A DNA stretch of 15,598 nucleotides from a virus. Taxonomy: Duplodnaviria > Heunggongvirae > Uroviricota > Caudoviricetes. The stretch's first letter is position 1. Every line of letters starts with the position of its first letter. Both the position numbers and the translations under genes were made by a program. Location: the IMG/VR virus record IMGVR_UViG_2585427738_000003; one strand, written 5' to 3'. The notes below the pieces were generated by a model. It was not told where the DNA came from. It saw only the letters and a list, made by a program, of their open reading frames with translations, and did not search any database. Shown here piece by piece: positions 1 to 15,598 of the stretch.

Positions 1-224
1 ACGCCTTACGGGGAGTGGCCGTAGGCCGGAAAAACTGGCTCTTCGCGGGTTCCGACAGCGGTGGCGAACATGCGGCGGTGTTGTACTCGCTGATCGGCAC
101 ATGCCGTCTGAACAATGTAGAGCCAGAAAAATGGCTGCGTTACGTTATTGAGCATATCCAGGACTGGCCGGCAAACCGGGTACGCGATCTGTTGCCCTGG
201 AAAGTTGATCTGACTTCTCAGTAA
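1..224 (+). pseudogene. IS66 transposase (TnpC) C-terminal fragment, copy 1, 5'-truncated at window edge
   Basis: Frame is open from position 3; the 69-aa track ORF begins at a GTG. About 96% identical at nucleotide level to 380-603. Confidence 0.7.
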
Positions 225-255
225 ATATCAATACGGTGACTGGATACAGCAACAG

Positions 256-603
256 ATGAAAACACTGTCGCGTCACTCAGATACGGCAAAAGCGTTCGCA
301 TACCTGCTGAAACAGTGGGATGCACTGAACGTGTACTGCAGTAATGGCTGGGTGGAAATCGACAACAACATCGCAGAGAACGCCTTACGGGGAGTGGCCG
401 TAGGCCGGAAAAAGTGGATGTTCGCGGGTTCCGACAGCGGTGGTGAACATGCGGCGGTGTTGTACTCGCTGATCGGCACATGCCGTCTGAACAATGTGGA
501 GCCAGAAAAGTGGCTGCGCTACGTCATTGAACATATCCAGGACTGGCCGGCAAACCGGGTACGCGATCTGTTGCCCTGGAAAGTTGATCTGAGCTCTCAG
601 TAA
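256..603 (+). pseudogene. IS66 transposase (TnpC) C-terminal fragment, copy 2
   Basis: 115-aa ORF containing internal TnpC sequence ([46 protein letters not shown]...) followed by the same C-terminus as copy 1. It starts at an internal Met just after the duplication junction at 237/238. Confidence 0.7.
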
Positions 604-616
604 ATATCAATACGGT
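380..616 (+). repeat. Direct repeat of 1-237 (partial tandem duplication of the tnpC 3' end, offset 379 bp)
   Basis: Positions 1-237 and 380-616 align with roughly ten mismatches. Copy 1 diverges at 238 back into internal tnpC sequence, while copy 2 continues into the putative IS terminus. Confidence 0.8.
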
Positions 617-991
617 TCTGACGAGCCGCTTACGGTGAAAATCATGTTTATTTATATATTTCAATTAATTGTAAACTGGTCTAATGACAGGGAGAAAAAA
701 ATATTGTACAGGTAAAAAGATAAATAACTTTTAATTATCAATAAATTACCAAACATGCTGCCGCCGCCATGGAAATGCAAAAACTAGCCTTTTTCCGCGA
801 CGCTCCCGCCCCGTGGCAGGGGCCCCCACCGGGAGGACCCGACAGCCTGACAGCCGTGATGAGCATCTGATACAGCGCTTTACATAATGGCATAGGAATA
901 ATTCAGAAGGACATCACAGCATGCCCACACAAATTAGTGTGAGTGTCCTGTTTCTTCCTACGCACAGGACTGACGAGCATGAGGGGAAAAT

Positions 992-1159
992 ATGCGAACC
1001 ATAAATGCCTCATCTTCAGCAATGCAACCGGCATCCGAACAGGACGATATTGTAAATTCACCTAATTACGAGGACATTGCAGTAGTTGAATTGCAGCTCT
1101 GTATTAGCCTGACAGTGACAGAATGCGATATTGACTCTGTCACAGGTGAAATAGTTTGA
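992..1159 (+). CDS. Candidate small ORF (55 aa), function unknown
   Basis: ATG at 992 preceded by GAGGGG about 6 nt upstream; encodes MRTINASSSAMQPASEQDDIVNSPNYEDIAVVELQLCISLTVTECDIDSVTGEIV; stop TGA 1157-1159. Below the track's 60-aa cut-off. I do not recognise the protein. Confidence 0.25.
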   Translation: MRTINASSSAMQPASEQDDIVNSPNYEDIAVVELQLCISLTVTECDIDSVTGEIV

Positions 1160-1179
1160 ATGATTAGCAGTTATGGTGC

Positions 1180-1386
1180 TCAGTCAACCACCAGGGAATA
1201 ATCCTTCGAATTCTTATCGTGCTTCACCAACGCTGCCTCAATTGCCCTGAATGCTTCCAGAGACACCTGATGTTCTATACATGCAATTACAACATCCGGG
1301 TAACTCATAGAAATGGTGCTATTAAGCATATTTTTTACACGAATCAGATCCAACGAGAGTTCATCAGCAGATTGTTCTTTATTCAT
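1180..1386 (-). CDS. Hypothetical small protein (68 aa)
   Basis: ATG at 1384-1386 with GGAG about 7 nt upstream on the minus strand; 68-aa track [23 protein letters not shown].... Sits where I recall a small unnamed gene upstream of ydfO in Qin; identity not recognised with certainty. Confidence 0.45.
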
Positions 1387-1686
1387 TTTGTCGCTCCATG
1401 CGTTTGCTCGTCATCTAGCGGTTAAAATATTACTTCAAATCTTACTGCATAAAAGAGGAAAAGTATGAAAGTTTGAGTACATCGACCTTACATACATCTG
1501 TCGGTTGCATATCCCTCCTGGATGCCAGCAAGGCTCAATTTTGTTACGCAATCAACACTATTCATTAAAAACAGGCTTAATATTTGACATAAATCATCAA
1601 CAAAACACAAAGAGGTCAGACCAGATTGAAACAATAAACACGATAATGCTAACTACGCGCCATCGTATCACATGGAAGGTTTACCA

Positions 1687-2118
1687 ATGGCTCAGGCTGC
1701 CATTTTTAAAGAAATATTCGATCAAGTGCGTAAAGATTTAAACTGTGAATTATTTTATTCTGAGCTAAAACGTCACAATGTCTCACTTTATATTTACTAT
1801 TTAGCCACAGATAATATTCACATTGTGTTAGAAAACGACAACATAGTGTTAGTAAAAGGACTCAAAAAGGTTGTAAATGTTAAATTCTCCAGAAACAAAC
1901 ATCTTATAGAGACCTCCTATAATAAGTTGAAATCAAAAGAAATCACATTTCAACAATACAGGGAAAATCTTGCTAAAGCAGGAGTTTTCCGATGGGTTAC
2001 AAATATCCAGGAACACCAAAGATATTACTATGCCTTTGATAACTCATTACTATTTACTGAAAGCATCCAGAAAATTACTGAAAGCATCCAGAAAACTACA
2101 CAGATCTTACCACGCTAA
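1687..2118 (+). CDS. ydfO: YdfO-like protein (DUF1398 family), 143 aa
   Basis: Translation [33 protein letters not shown]... matches my recollection of Qin YdfO. Start chosen at the second ATG (1687), which has GGAAGG about 7 nt upstream; the track ORF starts at 1672. Contains a 21-bp in-frame tandem duplication at 2056-2097. Confidence 0.75.
2056..2097 (+). repeat. 21-bp tandem duplication inside ydfO (ACTGAAAGCATCCAGAAAATT / ACTGAAAGCATCCAGAAAACT)
   Basis: Two adjacent 21-nt units, 20/21 identical, encoding [14 protein letters not shown] in frame. Confidence 0.9.
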
Positions 2119-2269
2119 ACCATAACGTCCGGCTTCTCTCACTCCTGAGCCGGACTGCATTGGTTTAATAAAAACCATCAACAATTGTGATTTAGATATT
2201 CGGAACCATTCAAATATAACAAAACCCCGTAAAAACGAGGTTTATGGATAAATTTTATTATTGAATACA

Positions 2270-2443
2270 TCAGATTAAATTAATCTTGACATCATAGCTT
2301 TCAAGACCCGTCATTTTTTCCCGTGCGGTAAACTGAATACTGGTAACTTCTTTCCCGGTCTTTTTCTTAAGTTCAATAATTTTTTTTGTTATATATTCAG
2401 AAATATCTGCTTCTGCTTTTGTTTTTAAGTCTTCAATATTCAT
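2270..2443 (-). CDS. gnsB: GnsB-like small protein (57 aa)
   Basis: Hand translation of the minus strand gives M(M)NIEDLKTKAEADISEYITKKIIELKKKTGKEVTSIQFTAREKMTGLESYDVKINLI, closely resembling my recollection of GnsA/GnsB. GAGGAA precedes the ATG doublet; stop is TGA (TCA on + at 2270-2272). Missed by the ORF track because it is under 60 aa. The start may instead be the upstream ATG at 2446. Confidence 0.75.
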   Translation of the reverse strand: MNIEDLKTKAEADISEYITKKIIELKKKTGKEVTSIQFTAREKMTGLESYDVKINLI

Positions 2444-2614
2444 CATTTCCTCTTTTAGTCTGTTATGACTTTCCAGTTACACAGTAAGTCGATTATATGG
2501 TGCAAACGTGTAAAAGATAAGATGAAACATCGCAATAATCAACATACGATAGTCTAAATTTTACACAAACAGACAAAGAGAATTTTCCTGAATTATCAAT
2601 GCAATAGCATCAAA

Positions 2615-2845
2615 TCAACTCAAGAGCCTTATTGCTGCTTCCAGAATTTCTTCTGAAGTAACATGTCGATCCGCGGCTACATAAATGACTTTATGATCTC
2701 CGGTCAGAGATGGAAACCCTGCGGCCATTACAGTAAGGTGTGTTTTTTCGCCATTTGGATATTCACGCATGATGGTGTTAACTCCAGTCATCGCTGGCAC
2801 TACCACTGCTGGTTCAGAGTTAAAAAAAACTATGATTTTTTTCAT
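2615..2845 (-). CDS. ynfN: YnfN-like small protein (76 aa)
   Basis: Track ORF 2615-2887 starts at a TTG; the first ATG (2843-2845) gives MKKIIVFFNSEPAVVVPAMTGVNTIMREYPNGEKTHLTVMAAGFPSLTGDHK.... Position between gnsB and cspI matches the Qin order as I recall it. Confidence 0.6.
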   Translation of the reverse strand: MKKIIVFFNSEPAVVVPAMTGVNTIMREYPNGEKTHLTVMAAGFPSLTGDHKVIYVAADRHVTSEEILEAAIRLLS

Positions 2846-3116
2846 GATGTTACCGTAGTATGTGAGTATCCATCGAATAGACACCAAGCAAAAAAGCTCC
2901 CGAAGGAGCCTTCATTTTCACTTTTTTAAATCCAACGACAGACGGCTGGCATTTAAGTATTGTGAAATATTATCAAATGTAATCATCATTGATTTACAAA
3001 AGATACATTTTGCCCCGAAAGGATTCATGTCAGAAACATCAAAAGATGATGTTCTATACTGGGAACCATGACAACACGGGCATCTAAAGTGAATATGGTT
3101 TGTAATATTGTCTACC

Positions 3117-3329
3117 TCAAAGCGCCACTACATGAACAGCGGCAGGACCTTTAGGTCCGTTCTCAATACCAAATTCAACTTCCTGATTCTCAGTTAATGT
3201 TTTGAAATCGTTGCTCTGAATTGCTGAGAAATGGACAAACACATCTTTGCTGCCATCTTTCGGCGTGATGAAACCAAAACCTTTTTCAGGGTTAAACCAT
3301 TTCACTAAACCAGTCATTTTGTTAGACAT
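3117..3329 (-). CDS. cspI: Cold-shock protein CspI (CspA family, 70 aa)
   Basis: [70 protein letters not shown] carries the canonical RNP motifs (KGFGFI, VFVHF). AAGG lies upstream of the ATG; about 360 bp of non-coding sequence lies upstream, consistent with a long cold-shock leader. Confidence 0.9.
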
Positions 3330-3690
3330 AATTATTACCTTTTGAAGAAATTAGCCCTTGGGCAGAATGGTCCGAAAAAAATATCAGAGAGAAAAACCAA
3401 CAAGGAAATCTCAAGAGGTACAAATAATAAAATTATAACAATGACTGCTTCAGATAAATTTGTAACAAACCAGAACACCATTAACGCATGATTAACCACC
3501 CATAGCAAGGATTACTTTTGTAAAGAAAAACACAGCAATGAAAGAATAGCTTTATTTATTAATAAAACGTGTCATTCTGATTAAGACCTTTTATCTTACC
3601 CTTAAGATTTCAGGAATTTTGGCTCATGGAAGAGTCCTTTTTATTCAAATTTTACATTCCGCGATGTAAATGTTCCGATTTAATATTACC

Positions 3691-4714
<1,024 letters not shown>

Positions 4715-4718
<4 letters not shown>

Positions 4719-5026
4719 AGATATTTATGATGAGGACGCTCGTGCTTATTGGCAGGATTTTCAATCTTAAAGGAGTACTGATGCTGCAGATAAGACTCAA
4801 CTTTTTCTGACAATTTTTCTGCTACTTCCAGGAAGACTTGCCGGACGCTCCTTCTGGCTGCTGCCTCATAAAACTCCAGCGCAGCTCCTTCAACACGGTC
4901 CATGGCGACATCCAGGTCAAAAATTTCACCGTCAAAGCGTTCTTTGTCCTGTAAGGCTACAGTTACCGTAACTTTATTCTCAAAATTACGGACTCCTTTC
5001 ACAACCAGTTCATAGTCTTGAGTCAT
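4715..5026 (-). CDS. ydfR: YdfR-like protein (103 aa), unknown function, between holin and endolysin
   Basis: 103-aa ORF MTQDYELVVKGVRNFENKVTVTVALQDKERFDGEIFDLDVAMDRVEG...; position matches the Qin lysis cassette as I recall it; 4-nt overlap with the rrrQ start. Confidence 0.65.
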
Positions 5027-5030
5027 TGGA

Positions 5031-5246
5031 TTACTCTCCTCTCGCAGCCTTACGCCTGTCTTCTTTAATCTTGAAATAAAGATTTGTCAGATACGTCAGC
5101 AGGCCAAAAACCAGGCTACCCAGCACACCGATTGCAGCCCACTGTGACGGAGTTACTTTATCGAGTAACTGCAATGCCCAGAAACCAGCATTACCCGCCG
5201 ATGTGCCATAGGCAACACCTGTTGTTAACTTATCCATTGATTTCAT
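5031..5246 (-). CDS. essQ: Class II holin / pinholin (phage 21 S-like) with dual-start motif, 71 aa
   Basis: [71 protein letters not shown] has two transmembrane segments and a charged C-terminus. Met1-Lys-Ser-Met4 is the classic antiholin/holin dual start. GAGG lies about 5 nt upstream of the ATG at 5246. The track ORF is longer (96 aa, starting 5321). Confidence 0.8.
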
Positions 5247-5465
5247 ATCCTCACCCCGATGTACACGGATGGTGCAATATGTTTGAAAAGATCGGAGTCT
5301 ACGGGGTAGTTTTGACAGCACACGTTGTTCTCAACGGCGCTAAAAAAACATACACATTAAAAATGTGGGTAATTATTTTGAAAGAAAGTCATATATAAAA
5401 TAATAATACGAGAAATGTTTTCATATTTAGTGTACTGTATACGGCCATTTATACAGGAAAAGCCT

Positions 5466-5636
5466 ATGTCAGAACGTAAAAACTCAAAATCACGCCGTAA
5501 TTATCTCGTTAAATGTTCCTGCCCAAACTGCACCCAAGAGTCAGAACACAGTTTTTCAAGAGTACAAAAAGGTGCCCTTTTGATCTGCCCTCATTGCAAC
5601 AAAGTATTCCAGACAAATCTTAAAGCTGTAGCCTGA
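5466..5636 (+). CDS. Small zinc-ribbon protein (56 aa; CxxC...CxxC), possibly YdfK/YnaE-like
   Basis: ATG at 5466 with AGGAAAAG just upstream; MSERKNSKSRRNYLVKCSCPNCTQESEHSFSRVQKGALLICPHCNKVFQTNLKAVA has CPNC and CPHC pairs. The track ORF starts earlier (5415) without a ribosome-binding site. Family assignment is tentative. Confidence 0.5.
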   Translation: MSERKNSKSRRNYLVKCSCPNCTQESEHSFSRVQKGALLICPHCNKVFQTNLKAVA

Positions 5637-5694
5637 TTGATTTTATTAGTAACAAGTATTTTTTATATTTTAATAATATATTTAAAGCAGATAA

Positions 5695-5720
5695 TAAAAA
5701 ACCCGCCTGAGCGGGTTTGA
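5695..5720. terminator. Bidirectional rho-independent terminator-like hairpin
   Basis: AAAAAA-ACCCGC-CTGA-GCGGGT-TTT; the T-run is stronger on the minus strand (reverse complement ends in TTTTTT). Confidence 0.55.
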
Positions 5721-5999
5721 GATTGTGGTGCTTTTTGTGGGAGTCATCCACTTACGCACTTTGTTTTGCCATGCCAGCAGTTAGCTTCTGCTGTAAAACT
5801 ATTCATGCAGCAAACCTGCACTTCACCACAATGGTTAGCATACTTTTCCTGATTAAGATTTTGCCAAATATGCTAGCCATTGTTTCATGTATTGGACCTC
5901 CTTACTTTTTATTAAAGAGATCCAATATTCACTACTCTGTCCGTATCTCTACTCAGGCATCAGCCTTCTTCGTTATCGTATACAGACGAGCGATGAATT

Positions 6000-6215
6000 T
6001 TAATCAGTAATGATGACATTTGCTGCTGCAGGACCTTTAGCACCACTCTCTATAGAGAAGGTAACCTTTTGACCTTCAAATAAGGTTCGATAATTATCAT
6101 TCTGAATCGCAGAAAAATGCACAAACACATCTTTACTACCATCAACAGGAGAAATAAAGCCGAAACCTTTATCAGCGTTAAACCATTTTACTAAACCAGT
6201 CATTTTATTTGACAT
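6000..6215 (-). CDS. cspB: Cold-shock protein CspB (71 aa)
   Basis: [71 protein letters not shown] is a canonical CspA-family sequence; divergent from cspF across a roughly 300-bp region. Confidence 0.9.
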
Positions 6216-6515
6216 TCTACATTCCTTAACTTGAGCCTTTCGGCATAAATGGTTTGCATAACAGAAACGACTTCGTACTTAATTGGAGAGACTCAAAGAA
6301 GGAATAAGTGAATAACACCTGAAATGAGAACTGCTTTAGTAAACTACTTCGTATATCGTCTGTTCTTCAAACCGACGCAATCATTAACGCATAGTTGAAC
6401 ATATGAAGCAATGTTTATTTTAGACATCCAGCCATCTTCAACCCCATCAAAAAACTATAGCTTTCTTCAGGAACGTGTGTATAGTGCGCCAAGTTATCAG
6501 TATTAAGGAATTTTT

Positions 6516-6728
6516 TTGTCCCGTAAAATGACAGGAATTGTCAAAACCTTTGACGGCAAAAGCGGCAAGGGTCTTATCACCCCATCCGATGGTCGTATCG
6601 ATGTCCAGCTTCATGTTTCAGCGCTCAATCTCCGCGATGCAGAAGAAATTACCACCGGATTACGCGTGGAATTTTGCCGGATAAATGGTCTGCGTGGCCC
6701 TTCAGCTGCCAATGTTTACCTTTCATGA
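6516..6728 (+). CDS. cspF: Cold-shock-like protein CspF (70 aa), divergent CspA-family member
   Basis: [70 protein letters not shown] has a CspA-like fold signature with degenerate RNP motifs. Confidence 0.85.
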
Positions 6729-7020
6729 GCTATATTAAAGCTTTAATTTCAGGCCCCATCGGATCACACATGGAGAGTTTTTATGAATAACCCCGTCTGT
6801 CTTGATGACTGGTTGATTGGCTTTAAAAGCTTATGCTGTACTTTGGCCGTAATAGCTCTGCTAATAATATAATAAGCAGACTCATTGTGTTTAGGGACAT
6901 TGTACTGGAAGAAAACATTTTAAACATCAGGCAAATAACCAAGTCACCAGCTAAATAATAAGTTAACAGACATGAGTCCCGGGATGAGATTCAACATTAC
7001 CATTGCCCCATTTAAAGCAC

Positions 7021-7044
7021 AAAACCCGCTCATCAGCGGGTTTT
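7021..7044. terminator. Bidirectional rho-independent terminator-like hairpin between cspF and quuQ
   Basis: AAAACCCGCTCATCAGCGGGTTTT followed by a T-rich run on the + strand and a T-run on the reverse complement. Confidence 0.55.
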
Positions 7045-7149
7045 CTACTTTTTCTTAACGTCGGGTATACAAAGCCCATCGTTGAAAAAATTTTATCCAT
7101 ATTTTTTGAAAAATGCAAACATCATGTCGCCATCTTCAGCAAAAATCAT

Positions 7150-7902
7150 TTATCTCGTCACCTTCCTCAATTGCGCTTCCGCGTATGCTTCTTCCTGCCA
7201 GCACTTTGTTACCAGTTTACCAATGACGTCCGCATACCCCTTATACCACTGATAATCGGTCAGGTCTGGTACCAGCTTCTGGACATGACGTCGTGCCAGC
7301 GTGGTCGGTAAACGACTAAACCGGTTTCCATTACAACGCCCACAAATCTTATATACCGGTACGCCATGAAACCGGGTTCTTTTTTCATCCAGAACAATCC
7401 CTTTACCCTTACACCCTCTGCACGCTGTGCTGGCTTCGCCCTTACCATGGCAATGCTGACATAGTTCCTTCACCCATTCTTCCTTGATTACAGATTCCCC
7501 GCGTCTGTAGTGTTTCACCACTTCGCGCAATACATTATAAAATCCCGTACCTGAACAATGCTCACAGCGAGCCTTACTTGCCGCAGACCTGGAGTAATCA
7601 GCAAAGGCAAAACTCACGAGGTAAGGAATAATCTGTAACCGGATTTCTTCACTCAATTTGTTCAATGTCGGGTTATCCAGTGCCATCGCGTAATTTAGCA
7701 GGCCTTCAATCGCAAACTGAGGGTCCTGAACACCAACTTTTGCCAGAAATAAGGCCAACCCAAGTGGTGCTTTCGACTGCACCATCCCCTGCGCTGCCAT
7801 TACATCCGTAATTGTTAAACAACCGGTGCCTGTCGCTGGAGCGTCATCGCTCAATTTTGGAGATTTTGGGGAGTAATATTTTGGTAAGGCTTCAAGGTTC
7901 AT
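7150..7902 (-). CDS. quuQ: Late-gene antiterminator Q (phage 82/21-type), 250 aa
   Basis: Start at the ATG at 7900-7902 (MNLEALPKYY...) with GGAG about 9 nt upstream; the track ORF starts earlier. Multiple CxxC pairs (CEHCSGTG, CQHCHGKG, CRGCKGKG, CGRCNGN) fit the Q zinc-binding region. Located upstream of the lysis cassette on the same strand. Confidence 0.8.
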   Translation of the reverse strand: MNLEALPKYYSPKSPKLSDDAPATGTGCLTITDVMAAQGMVQSKAPLGLALFLAKVGVQDPQFAIEGLLNYAMALDNPTLNKLSEEIRLQIIPYLVSFAFADYSRSAASKARCEHCSGTGFYNVLREVVKHYRRGESVIKEEWVKELCQHCHGKGEASTACRGCKGKGIVLDEKRTRFHGVPVYKICGRCNGNRFSRLPTTLARRHVQKLVPDLTDYQWYKGYADVIGKLVTKCWQEEAYAEAQLRKVTR

Positions 7903-7915
7903 GCTCGTTCTCCAC

Positions 7916-8965
7916 TTACGCCAGTACGCCAATTGCCAGCGCGCGATCGATAAAACGAAATATCAGCTCCAGTTGGGAGCCATACTTATCTTCAAATGCC
8001 ACTGTATCCGTATGCAGCTCGTTGTGATGCTTTCTGCACAAAGGCAACACAAAGAGATCATGTGCTTTTGTTCCCATTCCGCCCTGCCCGTGACCAATCA
8101 GATGATGCGGATCGTCGGCTGGCATACCGCAGCAAGCACACGGCTGTGTCTTAACCCAACGTGTGTATTTCTCCTTAACCCAGCGGCGACGTTTAGGCAG
8201 CTTCATGAAAGATTCCGGAGACTCTGGATCAACGGTGATGCTTACCACCGTCTTTTCCTGTGGTGATTTTTGTTGCTGGTGGGCGTAAGGCAACGGTGCA
8301 AGATTTTTTGTGCGTTGTTTCAATATGCTGGTGGCGGTCTGCTCTCCCGGTACGATGTCGCTTTCGCGGTACACCGAGCAGATTTTTTCCGCTGGTAATC
8401 CCAGCGAACGACGCGATACAGCCTCAGGTAGTGCATCCACCACCTGATTGCAGACCGCCCACCAGGATAATTCAGCCAAAGATAATTCCCGCTCCTGCGT
8501 ACCGCTTATTGCGTGACGGATGACGTCAATCACCCATGCTGTCAGATTTTGTTGAGCAAGCAGCTCCAGTGATTCCGATGTCTGGTCACGCAGTTGGTTG
8601 TCGCAGTGCCAGCACAACACCATTGCGCCGGTACCATAACGGTGAATGACTGTTTCAGTGTGATGGTAATCGCCATTAGGCCACTGGCAGGATGTAACAT
8701 GACGTAATAGCCAGTCGGACAATGCGCCAACGCCGCCAGCAGCACGAATCACCCGTTCGTTACTAAAAAACGGCAGCAATGTTTTGTCTTCCGCCATCGG
8801 CTGGCGAACGGCAGGAACGACTCCGGATGGCAGATTACGCATGCTTTTTGGTTCCGGTTCCACCAGCACTCGAGGATTATGAAATATCTGTATGGATTCA
8901 CGGCCCGGCTTAAGGACCACCAGCCCAAGCTCAGGCACCAGAACAGGTCTAAGTAATACCCGCAC
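7916..8965 (-). CDS. ydfU: YdfU-like protein (DUF968) with C-terminal HNH-like motif, 349 aa, probable GTG start
   Basis: Track ORF begins at a GTG at 9004. I place the start at the in-frame GTG at 8963-8965 because GGAGG lies 5 nt upstream and it sits 1 nt after the rem stop (translational coupling); this gives 349 aa. C-terminus CACCGMPADDPHHLIGHG...PLCRKHHNELH resembles an HNH nuclease motif. Confidence 0.7.
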   Translation of the reverse strand: MRVLLRPVLVPELGLVVLKPGRESIQIFHNPRVLVEPEPKSMRNLPSGVVPAVRQPMAEDKTLLPFFSNERVIRAAGGVGALSDWLLRHVTSCQWPNGDYHHTETVIHRYGTGAMVLCWHCDNQLRDQTSESLELLAQQNLTAWVIDVIRHAISGTQERELSLAELSWWAVCNQVVDALPEAVSRRSLGLPAEKICSVYRESDIVPGEQTATSILKQRTKNLAPLPYAHQQQKSPQEKTVVSITVDPESPESFMKLPKRRRWVKEKYTRWVKTQPCACCGMPADDPHHLIGHGQGGMGTKAHDLFVLPLCRKHHNELHTDTVAFEDKYGSQLELIFRFIDRALAIGVLA

Positions 8966-8966
8966 G

Positions 8967-9245
8967 TTACCTCCAGATCCGTTGCTGGAAAGTGCGGGAC
9001 GCACGTGGTGGGCGTTCGGAATAAGGCAGCCTGACAGAGATTATCCAGTGCCGATAGTCGAGACTGAGAGCTTTCTTAACCTCGAACCCGCGCCTGCGGT
9101 AAGAATGAATCAGCCATTCGGCCTGTTCTGCAGTGCATGGAGGGTGCTGGAACCATTCAGACTTGAATGCGTGAGAATACCGCCCGTGCGTGCAGGCAAG
9201 AACGGGCGAATTATCAGAATTGTAATATTTTGCGTTGCGTGCCAT
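8967..9245 (-). CDS. rem: Rem-like small protein (92 aa), unknown function
   Basis: ATG at 9243-9245; MARNAKYYNSDNSPVLACTHGRYSHAFKSEWFQHPPCTAEQAEWLIHSYRRRGFEVKK...; stop TAA 8967-8969 immediately precedes the ydfU start. Confidence 0.65.
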   Translation of the reverse strand: MARNAKYYNSDNSPVLACTHGRYSHAFKSEWFQHPPCTAEQAEWLIHSYRRRGFEVKKALSLDYRHWIISVRLPYSERPPRASRTFQQRIWR

Positions 9246-9311
9246 CGGTTTTCTCCGGTGGCACGGTGTTACTCAGCGGGAGTTCAGCCCCGCGCAAGAT
9301 TGTAGATGAGT

Positions 9312-9563
9312 TTATTCTCCTGAAAAAGCAGAAAAGCCAGCTTTTATTCCGATCTCTTTCAATGCCTGTAATGAAGTGACAAACTCACCTTCGCGCAAGA
9401 TAAATCCGTCCGTGACCCGAGCATCCACAAAATTAATTAACGCAGCCCCATTCTTTCGCAAACACATAATGCGGTAATGACTAACAAGATTTCCATTTTC
9501 AACGCACACAGCATAGAGGCCATCTTCACAAAAAATTTTACGCAGTTCTTCGATGTTCATCAT
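9312..9563 (-). CDS. Hypothetical protein (83 aa)
   Basis: ATG-ATG start at 9558-9563 with GGAAGGA upstream on the minus strand; MMNIEELRKIFCEDGLYAVCVENGNLVSHYRIMCLRKNGAALINFVDARVTDGFILREGEFVTSLQALKEIGIKAGFSAFSGE. I do not recognise the family. Confidence 0.5.
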   Translation of the reverse strand: MMNIEELRKIFCEDGLYAVCVENGNLVSHYRIMCLRKNGAALINFVDARVTDGFILREGEFVTSLQALKEIGIKAGFSAFSGE

Positions 9564-9680
9564 CAGAATCCTTCCGGATAATTAGCTCTCCCCTTTAAGG
9601 GACCATCCCTCTTATCCCTGCGCGCTACTTAAGTATTTTTGATTCTATTCCGGCACCGTCCAGAACTTCAAACGCGTTGA

Positions 9681-9711
9681 AAATAAAAACAAAAACCCGC
9701 CGAAGCGGGTT
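9681..9711 (-). terminator. Rho-independent terminator downstream of hokD (end of the relB-relE-hokD transcript)
   Basis: On the minus strand: AACCCGC-TTCG-GCGGGTT followed by TTTTGTTTTTATTTT. Confidence 0.6.
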
Positions 9712-9779
9712 AAGTGCGGGTGCGTTGAGGATGCCTGCCACATCAGAGGTGGCGAGGGATTTCTCCCCCGCCGGGTCTC

Positions 9780-9935
9780 TTACTCCTCAGGTTCGTAAGC
9801 TGTGAAGACAGCGACCTCCGTCTGGCCGGTTCGGATTCGTACCTCGCAGAGGTCTTTCCTCGTTACCAGTGCCGTCACTATGACGGTTAAACAGATGACG
9901 ATCAGGGCGATTAACATCGCCTTTTGCTGCTTCAT
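9780..9935 (-). CDS. hokD: Hok-family membrane toxin HokD/RelF (51 aa)
   Basis: Hand translation gives MKQQKAMLIALIVICLTVIVTALVTRKDLCEVRIRTGQTEVAVFTAYEPEE, a typical Hok toxin with N-terminal transmembrane helix and conserved C-terminus. Below the track size cut-off. Downstream of relE on the same strand. Confidence 0.85.
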   Translation of the reverse strand: MKQQKAMLIALIVICLTVIVTALVTRKDLCEVRIRTGQTEVAVFTAYEPEE

Positions 9936-10006
9936 AGCCTGCTTCTCCTGTCAACGCAAAGCAGAAGTGTCACCTTCGGTGCGAAACAGAGATGTCATGC
10001 TTTGGT

Positions 10007-10294
10007 TCAGAGAATGCGTTTGACCGCCTCGCTATATACTTCCGAGCGTTCTCTTTTCCCAACAGAAATCACGAAAACGACAACTTTCTCGTCTATAACC
10101 TGGTATACAAGGCGATAGCCTGAAGACCGGAGCTTAATCTTGTAACAATCAGGCATACCACGGAGCTTGTTTGCTTCAATCCGGGGTGACTCAAGTACTT
10201 CAACCAGCTTCTTTTTCAACTGTTCACGTACCGTCGAGCCCAGCTTTCGCCATTCCTTTAGTGCCCGCTCGTCAAAATCCAGAAAATACGCCAT
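10007..10294 (-). CDS. relE: RelE mRNA-interferase toxin (95 aa)
   Basis: MAYFLDFDERALKEWRKLGSTVREQLKKKLVEVLESPRIEANKLRGMPDCYKIKLRSSGYRLVYQVIDEKVVVFVISVGKRERSEVYSEAVKRIL; start overlaps the relB stop. Confidence 0.9.
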   Translation of the reverse strand: MAYFLDFDERALKEWRKLGSTVREQLKKKLVEVLESPRIEANKLRGMPDCYKIKLRSSGYRLVYQVIDEKVVVFVISVGKRERSEVYSEAVKRIL

Positions 10295-10533
10295 CAGAGT
10301 TCATCCAGCGTCACACGTACTGGCTTAGGATTACGAAGCCGTTCTTTCACTATCTCCACAAGTTCAGCATCTTCATCACTCAGGAGTGTCTGTTTGAACG
10401 GCAAGCGTTCATTGTCAGCGATATACTCGAGCATGAGACGAAGCGCTTCAGAAGGAGTTACACCCATTTTTTCAAGCGCGGCGTAAGAACGCGCTTTAAG
10501 TTCATCGTCAATACGCAGGTTAATGCTACCCAT
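10294..10533 (-). CDS. relB: RelB antitoxin (79 aa)
   Basis: MGSINLRIDDELKARSYAALEKMGVTPSEALRLMLEYIADNERLPFKQTLLSDEDAELVEIVKERLRNPKPVRVTLDEL has a ribbon-helix-helix-like N-terminus; immediately upstream of and overlapping relE. Confidence 0.9.
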   Translation of the reverse strand: MGSINLRIDDELKARSYAALEKMGVTPSEALRLMLEYIADNERLPFKQTLLSDEDAELVEIVKERLRNPKPVRVTLDEL

Positions 10534-10544
10534 GTCTTACACCT

Positions 10545-10570
10545 CTTGTAATTACAAATGTCATTACAAG
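10545..10570. promoter_or_regulatory. relBE operator-like near-palindrome (relO) in the relB promoter region
   Basis: CTTGTAATTACAAATGTCATTACAAG contains the perfect palindrome TTGTAATTACAA (10546-10557) and a related repeat TGTCATTACAA, 12-37 bp upstream of the relB start codon. Confidence 0.6.
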
Positions 10571-10759
10571 TATCGCACTACAACATGCTTAGGGCAAGTC
10601 ACGAAGGAAGTCAGAAAGTAGTCGTAAGAACGGTGATCACTGTCCGCTTTGTGCCAGGAGCAGCCATTGCTAAGTCCATCCTGTATTGTGCAGGTCAGCT
10701 CGTTTTTAAAGAGTCCGGCCATCATCTTACTGGTACAGACACCATATACTTTGTGACGG

Positions 10760-10894
10760 TCAGGCTAGACGCATCGCGCGACCTTCGGGAACTAAATCCC
10801 CTTTCCAGCTATAAAGCGAAGCCAAACGAATACCTGCTGCTTGTGCAAGTTTTGTTTTTGAACCGAAATACAAAAGAGCGTCAGTTTTAAGCAT
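10760..10894 (-). CDS. dicC: DicC-like (Cro-like) regulator, only 44 codons here, possibly truncated
   Basis: Minus-strand ATG at 10892-10894, divergent from dicA; MLKTDALLYFGSKTKLAQAAGIRLASLYSWKGDLVPEGRAMRLA then TGA. I recall DicC as about 76 aa with the same N-terminus, so the 3' portion appears absent or replaced. Below the track size cut-off. Confidence 0.55.
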   Translation of the reverse strand: MLKTDALLYFGSKTKLAQAAGIRLASLYSWKGDLVPEGRAMRLA

Positions 10895-10911
10895 TTAAAA
10901 CACCTTTACTG

Positions 10912-10975
10912 TTAGTTATAACTAACAAGATAGATGTTAACAAAAACATAGTCAATACGATTTAGCATTAGCTAA
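10912..10975. promoter_or_regulatory. dicC-dicA divergent promoter/operator region with two TTAG-N6-CTAA sites
   Basis: Perfect 14-bp palindrome TTAGTTATAACTAA (10912-10925) and TTAGCATTAGCTAA (10962-10975) share TTAG...CTAA half-sites, lying between divergent dicC-like and dicA starts; the second abuts the dicA ATG. Confidence 0.45.
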
Positions 10976-10977
10976 CT

Positions 10978-11385
10978 ATGGAAACAAAAAATTTAACTAT
11001 CGGCGAACGCATCAGGTATCGTCGGAAAAACCTCAAACACACCCAAAGGTCTCTTGCTAAAGCCCTGAAAATCTCCCATGTGTCTGTATCACAATGGGAA
11101 CGGGGTGATAGTGAACCTACAGGGAAGAACCTTTTTGCCCTCAGCAAAGTATTGCAATGCTCACCAACATGGATTCTATTTGGCGATGAAGACAAGCAAC
11201 CAACACCACCTGTTGAGAAGCCAGTTGCCTTATCCCCCAAAGAACTAGAGCTCCTTGAGCTGTTTAATGCACTGCCAGAATCAGAACAGGATACCCAGCT
11301 CGCCGAAATGCGAGCTCGAGTAAAAAACTTCAATAAACTCTTTGAAGAATTACTAAAAGCCCGTCAGCGGACAAATAAAAGATAA
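10978..11385 (+). CDS. dicA: DicA repressor (XRE-family HTH, phage C2-like), 135 aa
   Basis: METKNLTIGERIRYRRKNLKHTQRSLAKALKISHVSVSQWERGDSEPTGKNLFALSKVLQCSP... has a classic XRE helix-turn-helix (QRSLAKALKISHVSVSQWERG). Confidence 0.9.
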   Translation: METKNLTIGERIRYRRKNLKHTQRSLAKALKISHVSVSQWERGDSEPTGKNLFALSKVLQCSPTWILFGDEDKQPTPPVEKPVALSPKELELLELFNALPESEQDTQLAEMRARVKNFNKLFEELLKARQRTNKR

Positions 11386-11551
11386 CATCATCAATGAGTT
11401 ATCTTTTACCACATCAATTATGTTAGCTATAGCATACAAAATCACTTGACCGATATGTTAGTCATGGCTAATCTTGTTTGCATCAACACACCGCACGGTG
11501 TTCTCAGCAAACAGTTCCGCTACCCCAGCGTTAAGGGGAAATGAGGTCAGC

Positions 11552-11707
11552 ATGGATACTATCGATCTTGGCAACAACGAATCTCTGGTGTACGGCGTGT
11601 TTCCAAACCAGGACGGCACGTTCACCGCAATGACGTATACCAAAAGCAAAACGTTTAAAACCGAAAATGGTGCCCGTCGCTGGCTGGAAAGAAACTCAGG
11701 TGAGTGA
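11552..11707 (+). CDS. ydfA: YdfA-like small protein (51 aa)
   Basis: ATG at 11552 with GAGGT about 4 nt upstream; MDTIDLGNNESLVYGVFPNQDGTFTAMTYTKSKTFKTENGARRWLERNSGE. The track ORF starts earlier at 11474. Confidence 0.75.
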   Translation: MDTIDLGNNESLVYGVFPNQDGTFTAMTYTKSKTFKTENGARRWLERNSGE

Positions 11708-11708
11708 T

Positions 11709-12284
11709 ATGGATTTCGACACAATCATGGAAAAGGCTTACGAAGAATACTTCGAAGGCCTTGCCGAAGGCGAAGAAGCTCTCAGCTTCAGTGAGTTTAA
11801 ACAGGCACTCAGAATAAGAATGTGCTCTCACAATGACGCGGAGCACAAATATGAGAAGCAAAATCAGACCGCAGAAAATTTTGTTCTGGAACCCGGAGAA
11901 ACGCTTTTCAAAATTCCCGTTACGTGCCCCATTTGCGGTTTTACATCAGAAGAACTTGACGACTCCTGTAACAATCAGGAAACAACCAAGTATGTCGAAG
12001 ATGATACCGAGTGCGCACGAAGAACGATTATATCCACGAGTCCAAACTCCAGGACCAATAAATCTCACTATGAGAGGGTGATTAATCCACTCCCCCAAAC
12101 CAATAAAAAAGATGCCGGAGGACAAAAAACCCAATGGAACAACGGGATATCTGTCAAAAAAAGACGTTCCATTAAAGACAAACAACGCAGCGCCAACAAC
12201 TGTAAGCGCTTTATACCAGTAATCAATTTTCATGTTCTTAAGCGGATTTATTGGTGGTTGCGACATTGCTTAATGAATCCTTAA
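11709..12284 (+). CDS. 191-codon ORF covering the ydfB/ydfC region; cysteine-rich middle, basic C-terminus
   Basis: ATG at 11709, one nucleotide after the ydfA stop (TGA-T-ATG); MDFDTIMEKAYEEYFEGLAEGEEALSFSEFKQALRIRMCSHNDAEHKYEKQNQTAENFVLEPGETLFKIPVTCPICGFTSEELDDSC... then a Lys/Arg-rich tail. The frame is open for 191 codons. The track ORF (11667) starts at an upstream GTG. Confidence 0.5.
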   Translation: MDFDTIMEKAYEEYFEGLAEGEEALSFSEFKQALRIRMCSHNDAEHKYEKQNQTAENFVLEPGETLFKIPVTCPICGFTSEELDDSCNNQETTKYVEDDTECARRTIISTSPNSRTNKSHYERVINPLPQTNKKDAGGQKTQWNNGISVKKRRSIKDKQRSANNCKRFIPVINFHVLKRIYWWLRHCLMNP

Positions 12285-12543
12285 AACTGTGGTGATTTTA
12301 AGGATACCACCTCGCCTGACGTGGTTAAAAGCAGGCACACAACACGAAAGCGCACGGCGAAGTTCGTCTCACTGTACGGTGTCGTTAAATTTAATTCGAC
12401 CGTGCGCTTCCGGTTGTGGCAACCCGCAAAATGGCGCGGCGGTAAGTATGGCGGGGTTATTCCTTCCCCGTTGAGGACACCGGGTTGTCAGGTTGACCAT
12501 ACGCTTAAGTGACAACCCCGCTGCAACGCCCTCTGTTATCAAT

Positions 12544-12601
12544 TTTCTGGTGACGTTTGGCGGTATCAGTTTTACTCCGTGACTGCTCTGCCGCCCTTTT
12601 T
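12544..12601 (+). ncRNA. dicF: DicF small regulatory RNA (ftsZ-targeting sRNA processed from the dicA-operon transcript)
   Basis: TTTCTGGTGACGTTTGGCGGTATCAGTTTTACTCCGTGACTGCTCUGCCGCCC followed by TTTTT matches the DicF sequence as I recall it, including the GGCGG...CCGCC terminator stem and U-tail. Confidence 0.85.
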
Positions 12602-12770: not shown

Positions 12771-12959
12771 ATGAAAACGTTATTACCAAACGTTAATACG
12801 TCTGAAGGTTGTTTTGAAATTGGTGTCACTATCAGTAACCCTGTATTTACTGAAGATGCCATTAACAAGAGAAAACAAGAACGGGAGCTATTAAATAAAA
12901 TATGCATTGTTTCAATGCTGGCTCGTTTACGTCTGATGCCAAAAGGATGTGCACAATGA
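12771..12959 (+). CDS. dicB: DicB cell-division inhibitor (62 aa)
   Basis: ATG at 12771 with GAGGA 7 nt upstream; MKTLLPNVNTSEGCFEIGVTISNPVFTEDAINKRKQERELLNKICIVSMLARLRLMPKGCAQ. The track ORF starts earlier at 12666. Confidence 0.9.
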   Translation: MKTLLPNVNTSEGCFEIGVTISNPVFTEDAINKRKQERELLNKICIVSMLARLRLMPKGCAQ

Positions 12960-13240: not shown

Positions 13241-15181
13241 ATGAGTAAAGTCTTTATTTGCGCCGCTATTCCTGACGAACTGGCAACAAGGGAAGAAGGC
13301 GCTGTGGCTGTAGCCACAGCCATTGAAGCTGGCGACGAACGCCGTGCTCGAGCAAAATTTCACTGGCAGTTCCTGGAACATTATCCGGCTGCTCAGGACT
13401 GCGCTTATAAATTTATTGTCTGCGAGGATAAACCTGGCATACCCCGCCCTGCCCTCGATTCATGGGATGCTGAATATATGCAGGAAAACCGCTGGGATGA
13501 GGAGTCTGCTTCTTTTGTCCCGGTTGAGACTGAATCCGATCCGATGAACGTCACTTTTGACAAGCTGGCCCCTGAAGTACAGAACGCTGTCATGGTTAAG
13601 TTCGACACATGTGAAAACATCACCGTTGATATGGTTATTAGCGCACAGGAATTGTTGCAGGAAGACATGGCAACATTCGACGGACATATCGTTGAAGCGT
13701 TGATGAAAATGCCAGAAGTTAACGCCATGTATCCGGAGCTTAAGTTGCACGCCATTGGGTGGGTTAAGCATAAATGTATTCCTGGTGCTAAATGGCCCGA
13801 AATTCAGGCAGAGATGCGCATCTGGAAAAAACGTCGCGAAGGTGAACGCAAGGAAACCGGAAAATACACGTCTGTTGTTGATCTCGCCCGCGCCAGAGCC
13901 AATCAACAGTACACTGAAAATTCAACAGGAAAAATCAACCCGGTCATTGCTGCCATTCATCGCGAATACAAGCAGACATGGAAAACACTGGATGACGAAC
14001 TGGCCTACGCTCTCTGGCCTGGTGATGTGGATGCCGGAAACATTGACGGCAGCATCCATCGCTGGGCAAAAAAAGAAGTTATCGACAACGACCGCGAAGA
14101 CTGGAAGCGTATCTCGGCATCAATGCGCAAACAGCCTGATGCCCTTCGCTACGACCGCCAAACTATTTTTGGCCTTGTCCGTGAGCGTCCGATCGACATT
14201 CACAAAGATCCCGTAGCACTGAACAAATATATCTGCGAATACCTGACGACAAAGGGCGTGTTTGAGAATGAAGAAACAGACCTGGGCACTGTTGATGTTC
14301 TCCAGTCATCAGAAACACAAACTGATGCAGTGGAAACGGAAATACCAGACAACGAAAAAACCGAATGCAAAGTGGAAGTCGAACCATCTGTAGAACGTGA
14401 GGGGCCGTTCTACTTCCTCTTCACCGACAAGGACGGAGAAAAATACGGTCGCGCAAACAAACTTTCTGGTCTGGATAAGGCACTGGCTGCTGGCGCCACT
14501 GAAATCACAAAAGAAGAATATTTTGCCCGAAAAAATGGCACATACACGGGCTTACCGCAAAATGTAGATACCGCTGAAGATTCAGAACAACCAGAGCCGA
14601 TAAAAGTTACCGCTGACGAAGTAAACAAAATTATGCAGGCAGCCAATATCAGCCAGCCTGACGCCGATAAGTTGCTTGCTGCATCACGTGGTGAATTTGT
14701 TGAAGGGATTAGCGACCCGAATGATCCGAAATGGGTTAAGGGGATCCAGACCCGCGATTCTGCGAACCAGAACCAGCAAGAAACGGAACAGAACGACCAG
14801 AAAGCGGAACAAAACAGCCCAAATACGCAACAAAACGAGCCAGAAACGAAACAACCTGAACCAGTAGTGCAACAGGAACCGGAAAAGATCTGCACCGCCT
14901 GCGGTCAGAGCGGCGGCGGCAACTGCCCTGATTGTGGCGCGGTGATGGGCGACGCAACATACCAAGAAACATTCGATGAAGAGTATCAGGTTGAAGTTCA
15001 GGAAGATGATCCGGAGGAAATGGAAGGCGCTGAACATCCACACAAGGAGAACACTGGCGGCAATCAGCATCACAACAGCGATAATGAAACTGGCGAGACG
15101 GCAGATCACCCAATTAAGGTGAACGGTCATCACAAAATCACATCCACCAGCAGACGGGGACCATCTAATGATCGACCTTGA
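13241..15181 (+). CDS. ydfE: Large acidic protein (646 aa), YdfE-like; C-terminal CxxC-x11-CxxC zinc ribbon flanked by low-complexity Q/E/N-rich segments
   Basis: ATG at 13241 with GAGG about 10 nt upstream; the N-terminus [20 protein letters not shown]... matches what I recall of the Qin YdfE fragment. C-terminal region has [32 protein letters not shown], then [16 protein letters not shown], then an acidic His-rich tail. I recognise no catalytic motif. Confidence 0.7.
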
Positions 15182-15598
15182 AACCATGGGAAAAAATCCC
15201 GATGCCCCGATCATCTCAATAGGTGCAATATTTTTCGATCCGCAAACCGGAGATATGGGACCGGAATTTAGTAAGACTATCGATCTGGAAACTGCTGGCG
15301 GAGTCATTGATCGGGACACCATTAAATGGTGGCTTAAACAATCACGCGAAGCGCAATCTGCCATTATGACCGATGAAATCCCGTTAGATGATGCACTGTT
15401 ACAATTGCGGGAATTTATCGACGAAAACTCCGGTGAATTTTTTGTTCAGGTCTGGGGAAATGGAGCCAACTTCGACAACACGATTTTGCGCCGTTCATAC
15501 GAACGGCAGGGGATCCCCTGCCCGTGGCGTTACTACAACGATCGCGATGTACGCACAATCGTTGAGCTGGGGAAAGCCATAGACTTCGATGCCAGAAC
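15168..15598 (+). CDS. DnaQ-like (DEDD family) 3'-5' exonuclease, 5' partial (runs off window end)
   Basis: ATG at 15168 overlapping the preceding stop by 14 nt in the +1 frame. Hand translation [34 protein letters not shown]...[40 protein letters not shown]... contains Exo I (D-L-E-T) and Exo II (NGANFD) motifs. Absent from the ORF track because no stop is reached. Confidence 0.7.

Follow-up and report, generated by a model that had tools for sequence, protein, structure and literature searches.

We consider it very probable that the window analysed here, by which we mean the whole 15,598-nucleotide stretch of IMG/VR virus record IMGVR_UViG_2585427738_000003, carries a lineage-specific deletion that arose by illegitimate recombination in a Qin-like cryptic prophage, with the predicted loss of the Cro arm of its immunity switch. 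The prophage is of the Qin type both in its gene order (lysis genes, cspB/F, ydfT(Q), ydfU, rem, hokD and relEB, followed, after the interval discussed here, by dicC, dicA, ydfA, dicF, dicB, ydfD and exonuclease), with which the annotation of identical DNA agrees, and in its near identity to reference Qin, as the flanks are 99.7–99.97% identical to K-12 and IAI1 over the collinear blocks. HokD is identical to that of K-12, and ydfD is present. On the minus strand, Rfam also detects leaders of the cspA thermoregulator type at 5984-6376 and 3090-3474, upstream of cspB and cspI. The features on which the argument is built are the following:

9312 to 9563, minus strand: rem, the antirepressor of DicA, downstream of the truncated dicC on the same strand; translation identical to K-12 Rem.
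10007 to 10294, minus strand: relE, intact; translation identical to K-12, and RefSeq on strain 504239 agrees.
10294 to 10533, minus strand: relB, intact; translation identical to K-12, and RefSeq on strain 504239 agrees.
10558 to 10890, plus strand: ydfV remnant, a chimeric ORF of 110 aa in which codons 1-70 (10558-10767) are native and 40 further codons are antisense dicC; from the alignment with K-12 YdfV.
10760 to 10894, minus strand: dicC remnant, with 43 native codons (10766-10894), then GCC (Ala) and TGA; from the ORF list, translation alignment and Pfam.
10766 to 10767: deletion junction, which is also the recurrent breakpoint P, after dicC nucleotide 129; from blastn breakpoints and three-way alignment.
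10909 to 10928: operator Oc, the DicA binding site, 20 bp, which reads CTGTTAGTTATAACTAACAA versus TTGTTAGTCATAACTAACAA in K-12; from alignments, with Oc taken from PMC3441716.
10927 to 10955, minus strand: dicC promoter, -35 TTGACT and -10 TATCTT, the -10 abutting or overlapping Oc; from a consensus scan, in agreement with PMC3441716.
10978 to 11385, plus strand: dicA, CI-like repressor, intact; protein identical to K-12 DicA, with Pfam HTH_3 and Phage_CI_repr.
11503 to 11522: recurrent breakpoint L (...CAGTTCCGCTA/CCCC), 30 nt upstream of ydfA, intact in the window; four different deletions elsewhere end here.
12545 to 12596, plus strand: DicF small RNA, intact; Rfam RF00039, 76.7 bits.
12771 to 12959, plus strand: dicB, cell-division inhibitor, intact; from its translation, the same RefSeq protein as in IAI1.

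When the window is aligned with the K-12 Qin locus by blastn, positions 4661-10767 correspond to locus positions 1-6107 with 2 mismatches, and positions 10766-11806 to locus positions 7723-8763 with 3 mismatches. The interval between relB and dicA, whose collinearity with canonical Qin would have spoken against a deletion, is not collinear with it, and 1,615 bp are missing relative to K-12. The gap that is left between the two genes amounts to 444 bp, in line with the approximately 440 bp given in the earlier note, which had also expected additional genes at this place in K-12; K-12 does have more genes there, in the order ydfV, flxA, ydfW, ydfX and dicC from relB towards dicA. The deletion or recombination junction that had been suspected near 10760 lies at 10766/10767, where the switch from one parent to the other is clean in three-way alignment, with the dinucleotide TA common to both parents and a repeat of at most 2 bp, and where codon 70 of ydfV is joined to codon 43 of dicC. 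Lost by the deletion are the 3' end of ydfV, flxA, ydfW, the ydaT-like/ydfX gene, what was left of the replication module and, from dicC, the last 33 codons. As both parents are known, 2 bp (TA) are shared between them and no mobile-element end is present, the event is of the microhomology-mediated (illegitimate) kind. It is not an IS-mediated adjacent deletion: an IS terminus adjoins neither 10766/10767 in the window nor the endpoints of the related deletions of types A, B and D (see below), and the IS3-family element that one carrier, TW11681, has about 70 nt away is secondary.

The junction is rare: it is present in 6 among 5,426 complete E. coli genomes, and 4 IMG/VR contigs have it as well. 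The whole relB-dicA interval is present in five of these genomes (504239, 67-1, WS1933D, S1-NGR-02-A and LR883000), while the sixth, TW11681, has the junction together with an extra IS3-family element inside the dicC remnant; this element is at 10609-11917 of its locus and represents a second hit on an already truncated dicC. The carriers appear to form one clone and, judging from the strain names, are presumably enterotoxigenic E. coli. The window by itself would be compatible with an assembly or collapse artefact in the compressed interval, and yet the probability of this is practically negligible, because the same 30-nt junction is identical in the six independently assembled complete genomes and in the four IMG/VR contigs, because the junction lacks any repeat above 2 bp on which a collapse could have occurred, and because one carrier later gained the IS3 insertion inside the remnant.

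The window matches none of the six carriers exactly, since it has about 50 substitutions clustered in the exonuclease gene and 237 extra bases at its start. Compared with strain 504239, with which it is collinear over 15.4 kb, all 53 differences are found at 14338-15452, inside the exonuclease (ydfE-like) gene, and the cluster looks like a recombination patch; from these differences it follows that the window comes from a carrier outside the complete-genome set. At the other end, positions 1-237 and 380-616 form a direct repeat of 237 bp with 95% identity, adjoining an IS66-family (ISCro1) element, and the first copy of the repeat is absent from strains 504239 and TW11681.

The minus-strand ORF at 10760-10894 encodes MLKTDALLYFGSKTKLAQAAGIRLASLYSWKGDLVPEGRAMRLA followed by a stop codon. 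It had been proposed that these 44 residues are the N-terminus of DicC and that the full protein has about 76 aa, and both points hold: over residues 1-43 there is no difference from the DicC of K-12 and IAI1, a protein with a full length of 76 aa, while residue 44 (Ala) and the stop derive from antisense ydfV. A reference DicC of about 44 aa would have made the ORF complete, but the reference protein is 76 aa long, the homologues found by protein search have 75-76 aa, and no 44-aa DicC-like proteins as a widespread form were present in the homologue search. Against the Pfam family P22_Cro (PF14549), full-length K-12 DicC scores 44.1 bits over model positions 2-57 of 60, whereas the remnant scores 34.2 bits (gathering cutoff 30.2) over positions 2-41 of 60, meaning that it belongs to the family and that the complete domain of approximately 60 positions and five helices is not there. 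Comparison with the structure of P22 Cro (1RZS) gives the same picture: full-length DicC aligns over residues 1-59, and the N-terminus aligns from residue 1 with the helix-turn-helix kept in the remnant, but the alignment of the remnant stops at the equivalent of residue 42 of 61, so that the last third of the domain is gone, and the missing part aligns with P22 Cro residues 43-58. In the predicted DicC model, which at a pLDDT of 57 (low confidence) served for helix boundaries only, and with caution, the cut falls within helix 4 and helix 5 is gone. The dicC promoter and the Shine-Dalgarno sequence are kept, and RefSeq flags the remnant as a pseudogene (identical sequence, strain 504239).

On the opposite strand ydfV is not wholly lost, as its first 70 codons are retained. 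K-12 YdfV has 101 aa, and the chimeric frame of the window ends at a stop codon at 10888-10890. A plus-strand ORF of 10585-10890, running antisense through dicC, had been described earlier; the antisense run is correct, but position 10585 is an internal ATG of ydfV, the true start of which is at 10558, and there is no separate gene. The chimeric ORF has no family match in Pfam or PHROG, and RefSeq lists the ydfV remnant as a pseudogene ("incomplete, missing C-terminus").

Since full-length DicC matches the P22_Cro model and the 1RZS structure over the ranges given above, and since its homologues have the same length, the long form is ancestral and the window is a deletion. The opposite direction, in which the short form would be ancestral and K-12 and IAI1 would have acquired the extra genes by insertion, can call on the TA found on either side of the segment, which is superficially like a TA target-site duplication. 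It is nevertheless very improbable, because the inserted DNA would need to bring at its start an in-frame continuation of dicC that matches P22 Cro residues 43-58, and at its end an in-frame continuation of ydfV, and because overlapping nested segments with one common end, as seen among the related deletions, are impossible for insertions.

Besides the 1,615 bp missing relative to K-12, 4,454 bp are missing relative to EC101, the closest undeleted relative, and 6,444 bp relative to IAI1. The latter retains a full ydaT-family gene along with an O-like and a DUF977 gene, a methyltransferase gene in decay and what remains of an ISEsa1. The Qin of K-12 has itself undergone deletion. The ancestor was probably a fuller Qin, similar to EC101 or IAI1, and not the K-12 form, which favours a deletion of 4.5-6.4 kb over one of 1.6 kb, though the true size may be 1.6, 4.5 or 6.4 kb according to the ancestor. 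A further difference is present at 11806-12327, where the window has 520 bp versus 399 bp in K-12 and differs from both K-12 and IAI1: ydfB is cut to 34 codons, ydfC is absent, and an unannotated minus-strand ORF of 106 aa (11946-12266), hydrophobic by eye, has no PHROG match. Because EC101 has the same unusual ydfB-dicF segment as the window, this segment is independent of the dicC deletion.

It is already known that DicA and DicC form a bistable switch in K-12, that deletion of dicC lowers the spontaneous and the urea- or heat-dependent induction of dicBp, and that Rem is an antirepressor of DicA (PMC10448788). The repression of dicA by DicC is 48- to 84-fold, and cells in which DicC is induced grow more slowly, an effect that is independent of Qin (PMC11430063). 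Among the components of such a switch, the window has an intact CI-like repressor (DicA being identical to K-12) and a shared operator/promoter region (83 bp between dicA and dicC, with PdicC and with Oc, inside which there are two substitutions), and the Cro-like repressor is not intact, DicC being cut after residue 43 of 76. We infer that the remnant is a null or strongly impaired Cro arm. The truncated protein would keep the helix-turn-helix without the end of helix 4 and without helix 5 of the P22-Cro fold, and it should neither repress dicA nor exert toxic control on host genes. With DicA, Oc, the dicBF operon and Rem intact, the strain would be expected to act like a K-12 dicC deletion mutant: dicB and dicF would remain repressed and DicA repression would be stable, spontaneous or stress-induced stable switching would be rarer, and derepression would be possible only via Rem. 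The 44-aa peptide, consisting only of the helix-turn-helix part, might still bind DNA to some degree or interfere with DicA.

The K-12 Qin immunity region and its engineered dicC deletion mutant (Ragunathan et al. 2023, PMC10448788) have the same DicA, the same intergenic promoters and the same dicBF operon as the window, and loss of DicC function is expected in both. Unlike that mutant, the allele in the window is natural, keeps 43 codons, removes 1.6-6.4 kb of neighbours, fuses ydfV to antisense dicC, places PdicC beside relBE and has the two changes in Oc. In lambda, CI and Cro are likewise encoded by divergent repressor genes on shared operators, and the loss of the Cro partner, as in cro-minus mutants, is expected to block stable commitment to the derepressed state (lambda genetics, PMC10448788). 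Unlike lambda CI, however, DicA has no domain that RecA could cleave, and its repression is lifted by the antirepressor Rem, and unlike lambda, Qin is cryptic, with cell-division inhibition as its output and not lysis. The racR-ydaS-ydaT region of Rac, a different prophage from Qin, shows the same layout of CI-like, Cro-like and YdaT-family genes; this likeness is one of layout and of Pfam, where DicC matches YdaS_toxin weakly and YdfX matches YdaT_toxin.

Oc is the single site with demonstrated DicA binding, and DicA represses dicC and activates dicA (PMC3441716). In the window it differs from K-12 at 10909 (T>C) and 10917 (C>T). The change at 10917 gives a perfect palindrome of 18 bp with a TATA centre, the change at 10909 hits the outermost base and breaks the outermost symmetric pair, and both spare the TTAG/CTAA tetramers of the published DicC motif. 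Among 851 genomes with a matching intergenic region, this Oc variant is found only in the 6 deletion carriers, and the other dicC-truncated lineages (types A, B and D) have wild-type Oc. In 7.1 kb that otherwise hardly differ from K-12 and IAI1, there are three lineage-private substitutions (8797, 10909 and 10917), the latter two being the only ones in the immunity region, and the chance that two of three would fall within 20 of 7,146 bp is about 2e-5, to be read with the carriers being seemingly one clone; the substitutions may have hitch-hiked with the deletion. In an unrelated IMG/VR contig the T at 10917 occurs alone, and this position is thus naturally variable. A different change near the promoter is present in the type-B genome GCA_033746255.1, with G>A just upstream of the -10 hexamer of dicC (GATAGATG>GATAAATG). 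The text of the Reg-Seq paper has no position-level data for Oc. It is plausible, as a speculation, that the two substitutions tighten DicA binding by an A/T-richer and more symmetric centre, though the net effect could also be nil or negative.

From these observations one could suppose that the deletion and the Oc changes were jointly selected and that the prophage is locked off, the toxic DicC, the ydaT-like gene and the replication genes having been removed and tighter binding of DicA to Oc stopping read-through into relBE, hokD and rem. We regard this as unlikely. It would fit with the fact that relB now follows PdicC at a distance of 387 nt, no terminator being predicted in between, with the growth inhibition caused by DicC induction, with the placement of two of the three private substitutions in Oc and with their presence only in the deletion type that adjoins relBE; moreover, read-through into rem would otherwise feed back on DicA, and at only about 20-25 copies of DicA per cell the affinity of the operator matters. 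Such a scenario is, however, wholly inferential, and in carriers that are one clone, linkage between substitutions and deletion is expected anyway. The parental arrangement is also without a predicted terminator: scans for intrinsic terminators gave none that was convincing, whether in the stretch of the window from PdicC to relB or in the K-12 segment that the deletion removed, and therefore new read-through into relBE is hypothetical. The reading that we prefer is still a deletion by illegitimate recombination with predicted loss of the Cro arm.

The break on the dicC side is not random but belongs to a set of three endpoints that recur around dicA: P (dicC nucleotide 129), A (codon 93 of the ydaT-like gene) and L (30 nt upstream of ydfA), which are at positions 14001, 13636 and 14757, respectively, of the IAI1 locus. 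Endpoint P is common to at least three other independent deletions, namely types A, B and D. In a protein search with the remnant, two other DicC variants diverge after residue 43, and their contigs have different deletions with the same dicC endpoint. In type A, P is joined to codon 93 of the ydaT-like gene (about 360 bp removed), in type B it is joined beyond the DUF977 gene (about 1.9 kb removed), and in type D, from a pattern scan of IMG/VR, it is joined inside the ISEsa1 transposase gene. According to queries with 44-nt junctions, the complete genomes contain type A once (n = 1), type B once (n = 1) and type D not at all (n = 0). The distal parental ends are CTA, TTA and TCTA, with GTA in the window, and all junctions share at least TA. 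Site A has five further partners in IMG/VR, and the K-12 ydfX/ydfW junction starts exactly at site A, where type A ends. This K-12 junction is of the same event class as that of the window, a TA-joined microhomology deletion in the dicC-relB interval, but the K-12 deletion spares dicC, whereas the one in the window takes the dicC C-terminus and everything up to ydfV. The four different deletions that end at L run the opposite way to those of P and A.

The sequence ...(G/C)CTA-3' is common to all three sites on the early transcript's sense strand, and the deletions head outward from dicA. Together the three sites serve 14 distinct deletions, that of the K-12 ydfX/ydfW junction included, and in 13 of the 14 junctions TA is present in the parental sequence of the partner, which at a TA frequency of 5% has a chance of about 1e-16. 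Two control TA sites in dicC showed no deletion junctions, and one further dicC deletion is at a different site, with 6-nt homology. Between P and the downstream 8 kb, a search for extended homology gave only chance matches of 7-9 nt, none of them at the junctions. A hairpin was also considered as the common cause and was rejected: P is in the apical loop of one (-12.7 kcal/mol, z = -3.0), but A and L have z about 0. To our knowledge, the three sites do not match Pin/Hin-type crossover sites, IS630/IS5 targets, type IIS restriction sites or the gyrase consensus. A literature search for recurrent breakpoints in cryptic prophages yielded nothing relevant.

The lesions of dicC found in nature include an IS1 insertion, the IS3 insertion of TW11681, several frameshifts, an in-frame deletion, a nonsense mutation at codon 44 and at least five deletion types. 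Given the toxicity of DicC upon induction, its loss may plausibly reflect relaxed or positive selection. The nonsense mutation is on the metagenome contig SKES01013571.1 (approximately 391-412), in a dicC allele of about 90% identity, where CAG>TAG at codon 44 ends DicC at the same residue; this may be coincidence, the search pattern selecting changes at that base. One could propose that DicC(1-43) is a working mini-regulator, such as a weak Cro or a competitor for Oc, and that the lesion re-tunes the switch and does not break it, which would perhaps account for residue 43 being the end of DicC in four deletions and one nonsense mutation alike. Five independent lesions stop the native sequence exactly there, the helix-turn-helix is kept with a P22_Cro score above the gathering cutoff (34.2 vs 30.2 bits), and both the promoter and the Shine-Dalgarno sequence are retained. 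We nevertheless find this quite unlikely, for the following reasons: the tails differ, with +1 residue in the window, +15 in type B, +20 in type A and more than 25 in type D; selection on the protein would not fix one same nucleotide; TW11681 has IS3 inside the remnant; the nonsense match came from a pattern selecting changes at that very base; and identical endpoints at two sites outside dicC point to mutational bias. A loss of the Cro arm continues to be the reading that we favour.

As for the origin of the recurrent ends, we can offer only a tentative proposal, which we hold to be somewhat unlikely: P, A and L would be site-specific break points flanking the Qin immunity core, and the decay of this prophage family, including the K-12 arrangement, would result from a targeted activity producing 3' ends and not from random illegitimate recombination. 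From these sites, deletions would extend outward again and again, always in one direction, and any TA further downstream could serve for rejoining. The TA rule would follow if a fixed 3' end, left by nicking, stalling or pseudo-termination, paired anew through its two final bases. The candidates for such an activity would be a strand-specific nickase, pseudo-termination by an HUH-type enzyme, or template switching at a transcription-linked stall, and the immunity core of dicA, Oc and the truncated dicC would be what such a process leaves.

Taken for itself, the deletion is ordinary prophage decay, one more deletion allele of a well-studied cryptic prophage, in which RefSeq already marks ydfV and dicC as pseudogenes. 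Its use is that it provides a natural, clinically derived and presumably dicC-null/dicA+ genotype, with which the DicA/DicC switch and the host regulon of DicC can be tested beyond K-12. The points worth pursuit are the operator substitutions and the recurrent TA-joined endpoints, and if these endpoints reflect a specific enzyme or stall site, they would give a concrete mechanism for the whittling of lambdoid prophages down to "grounded" remnants.
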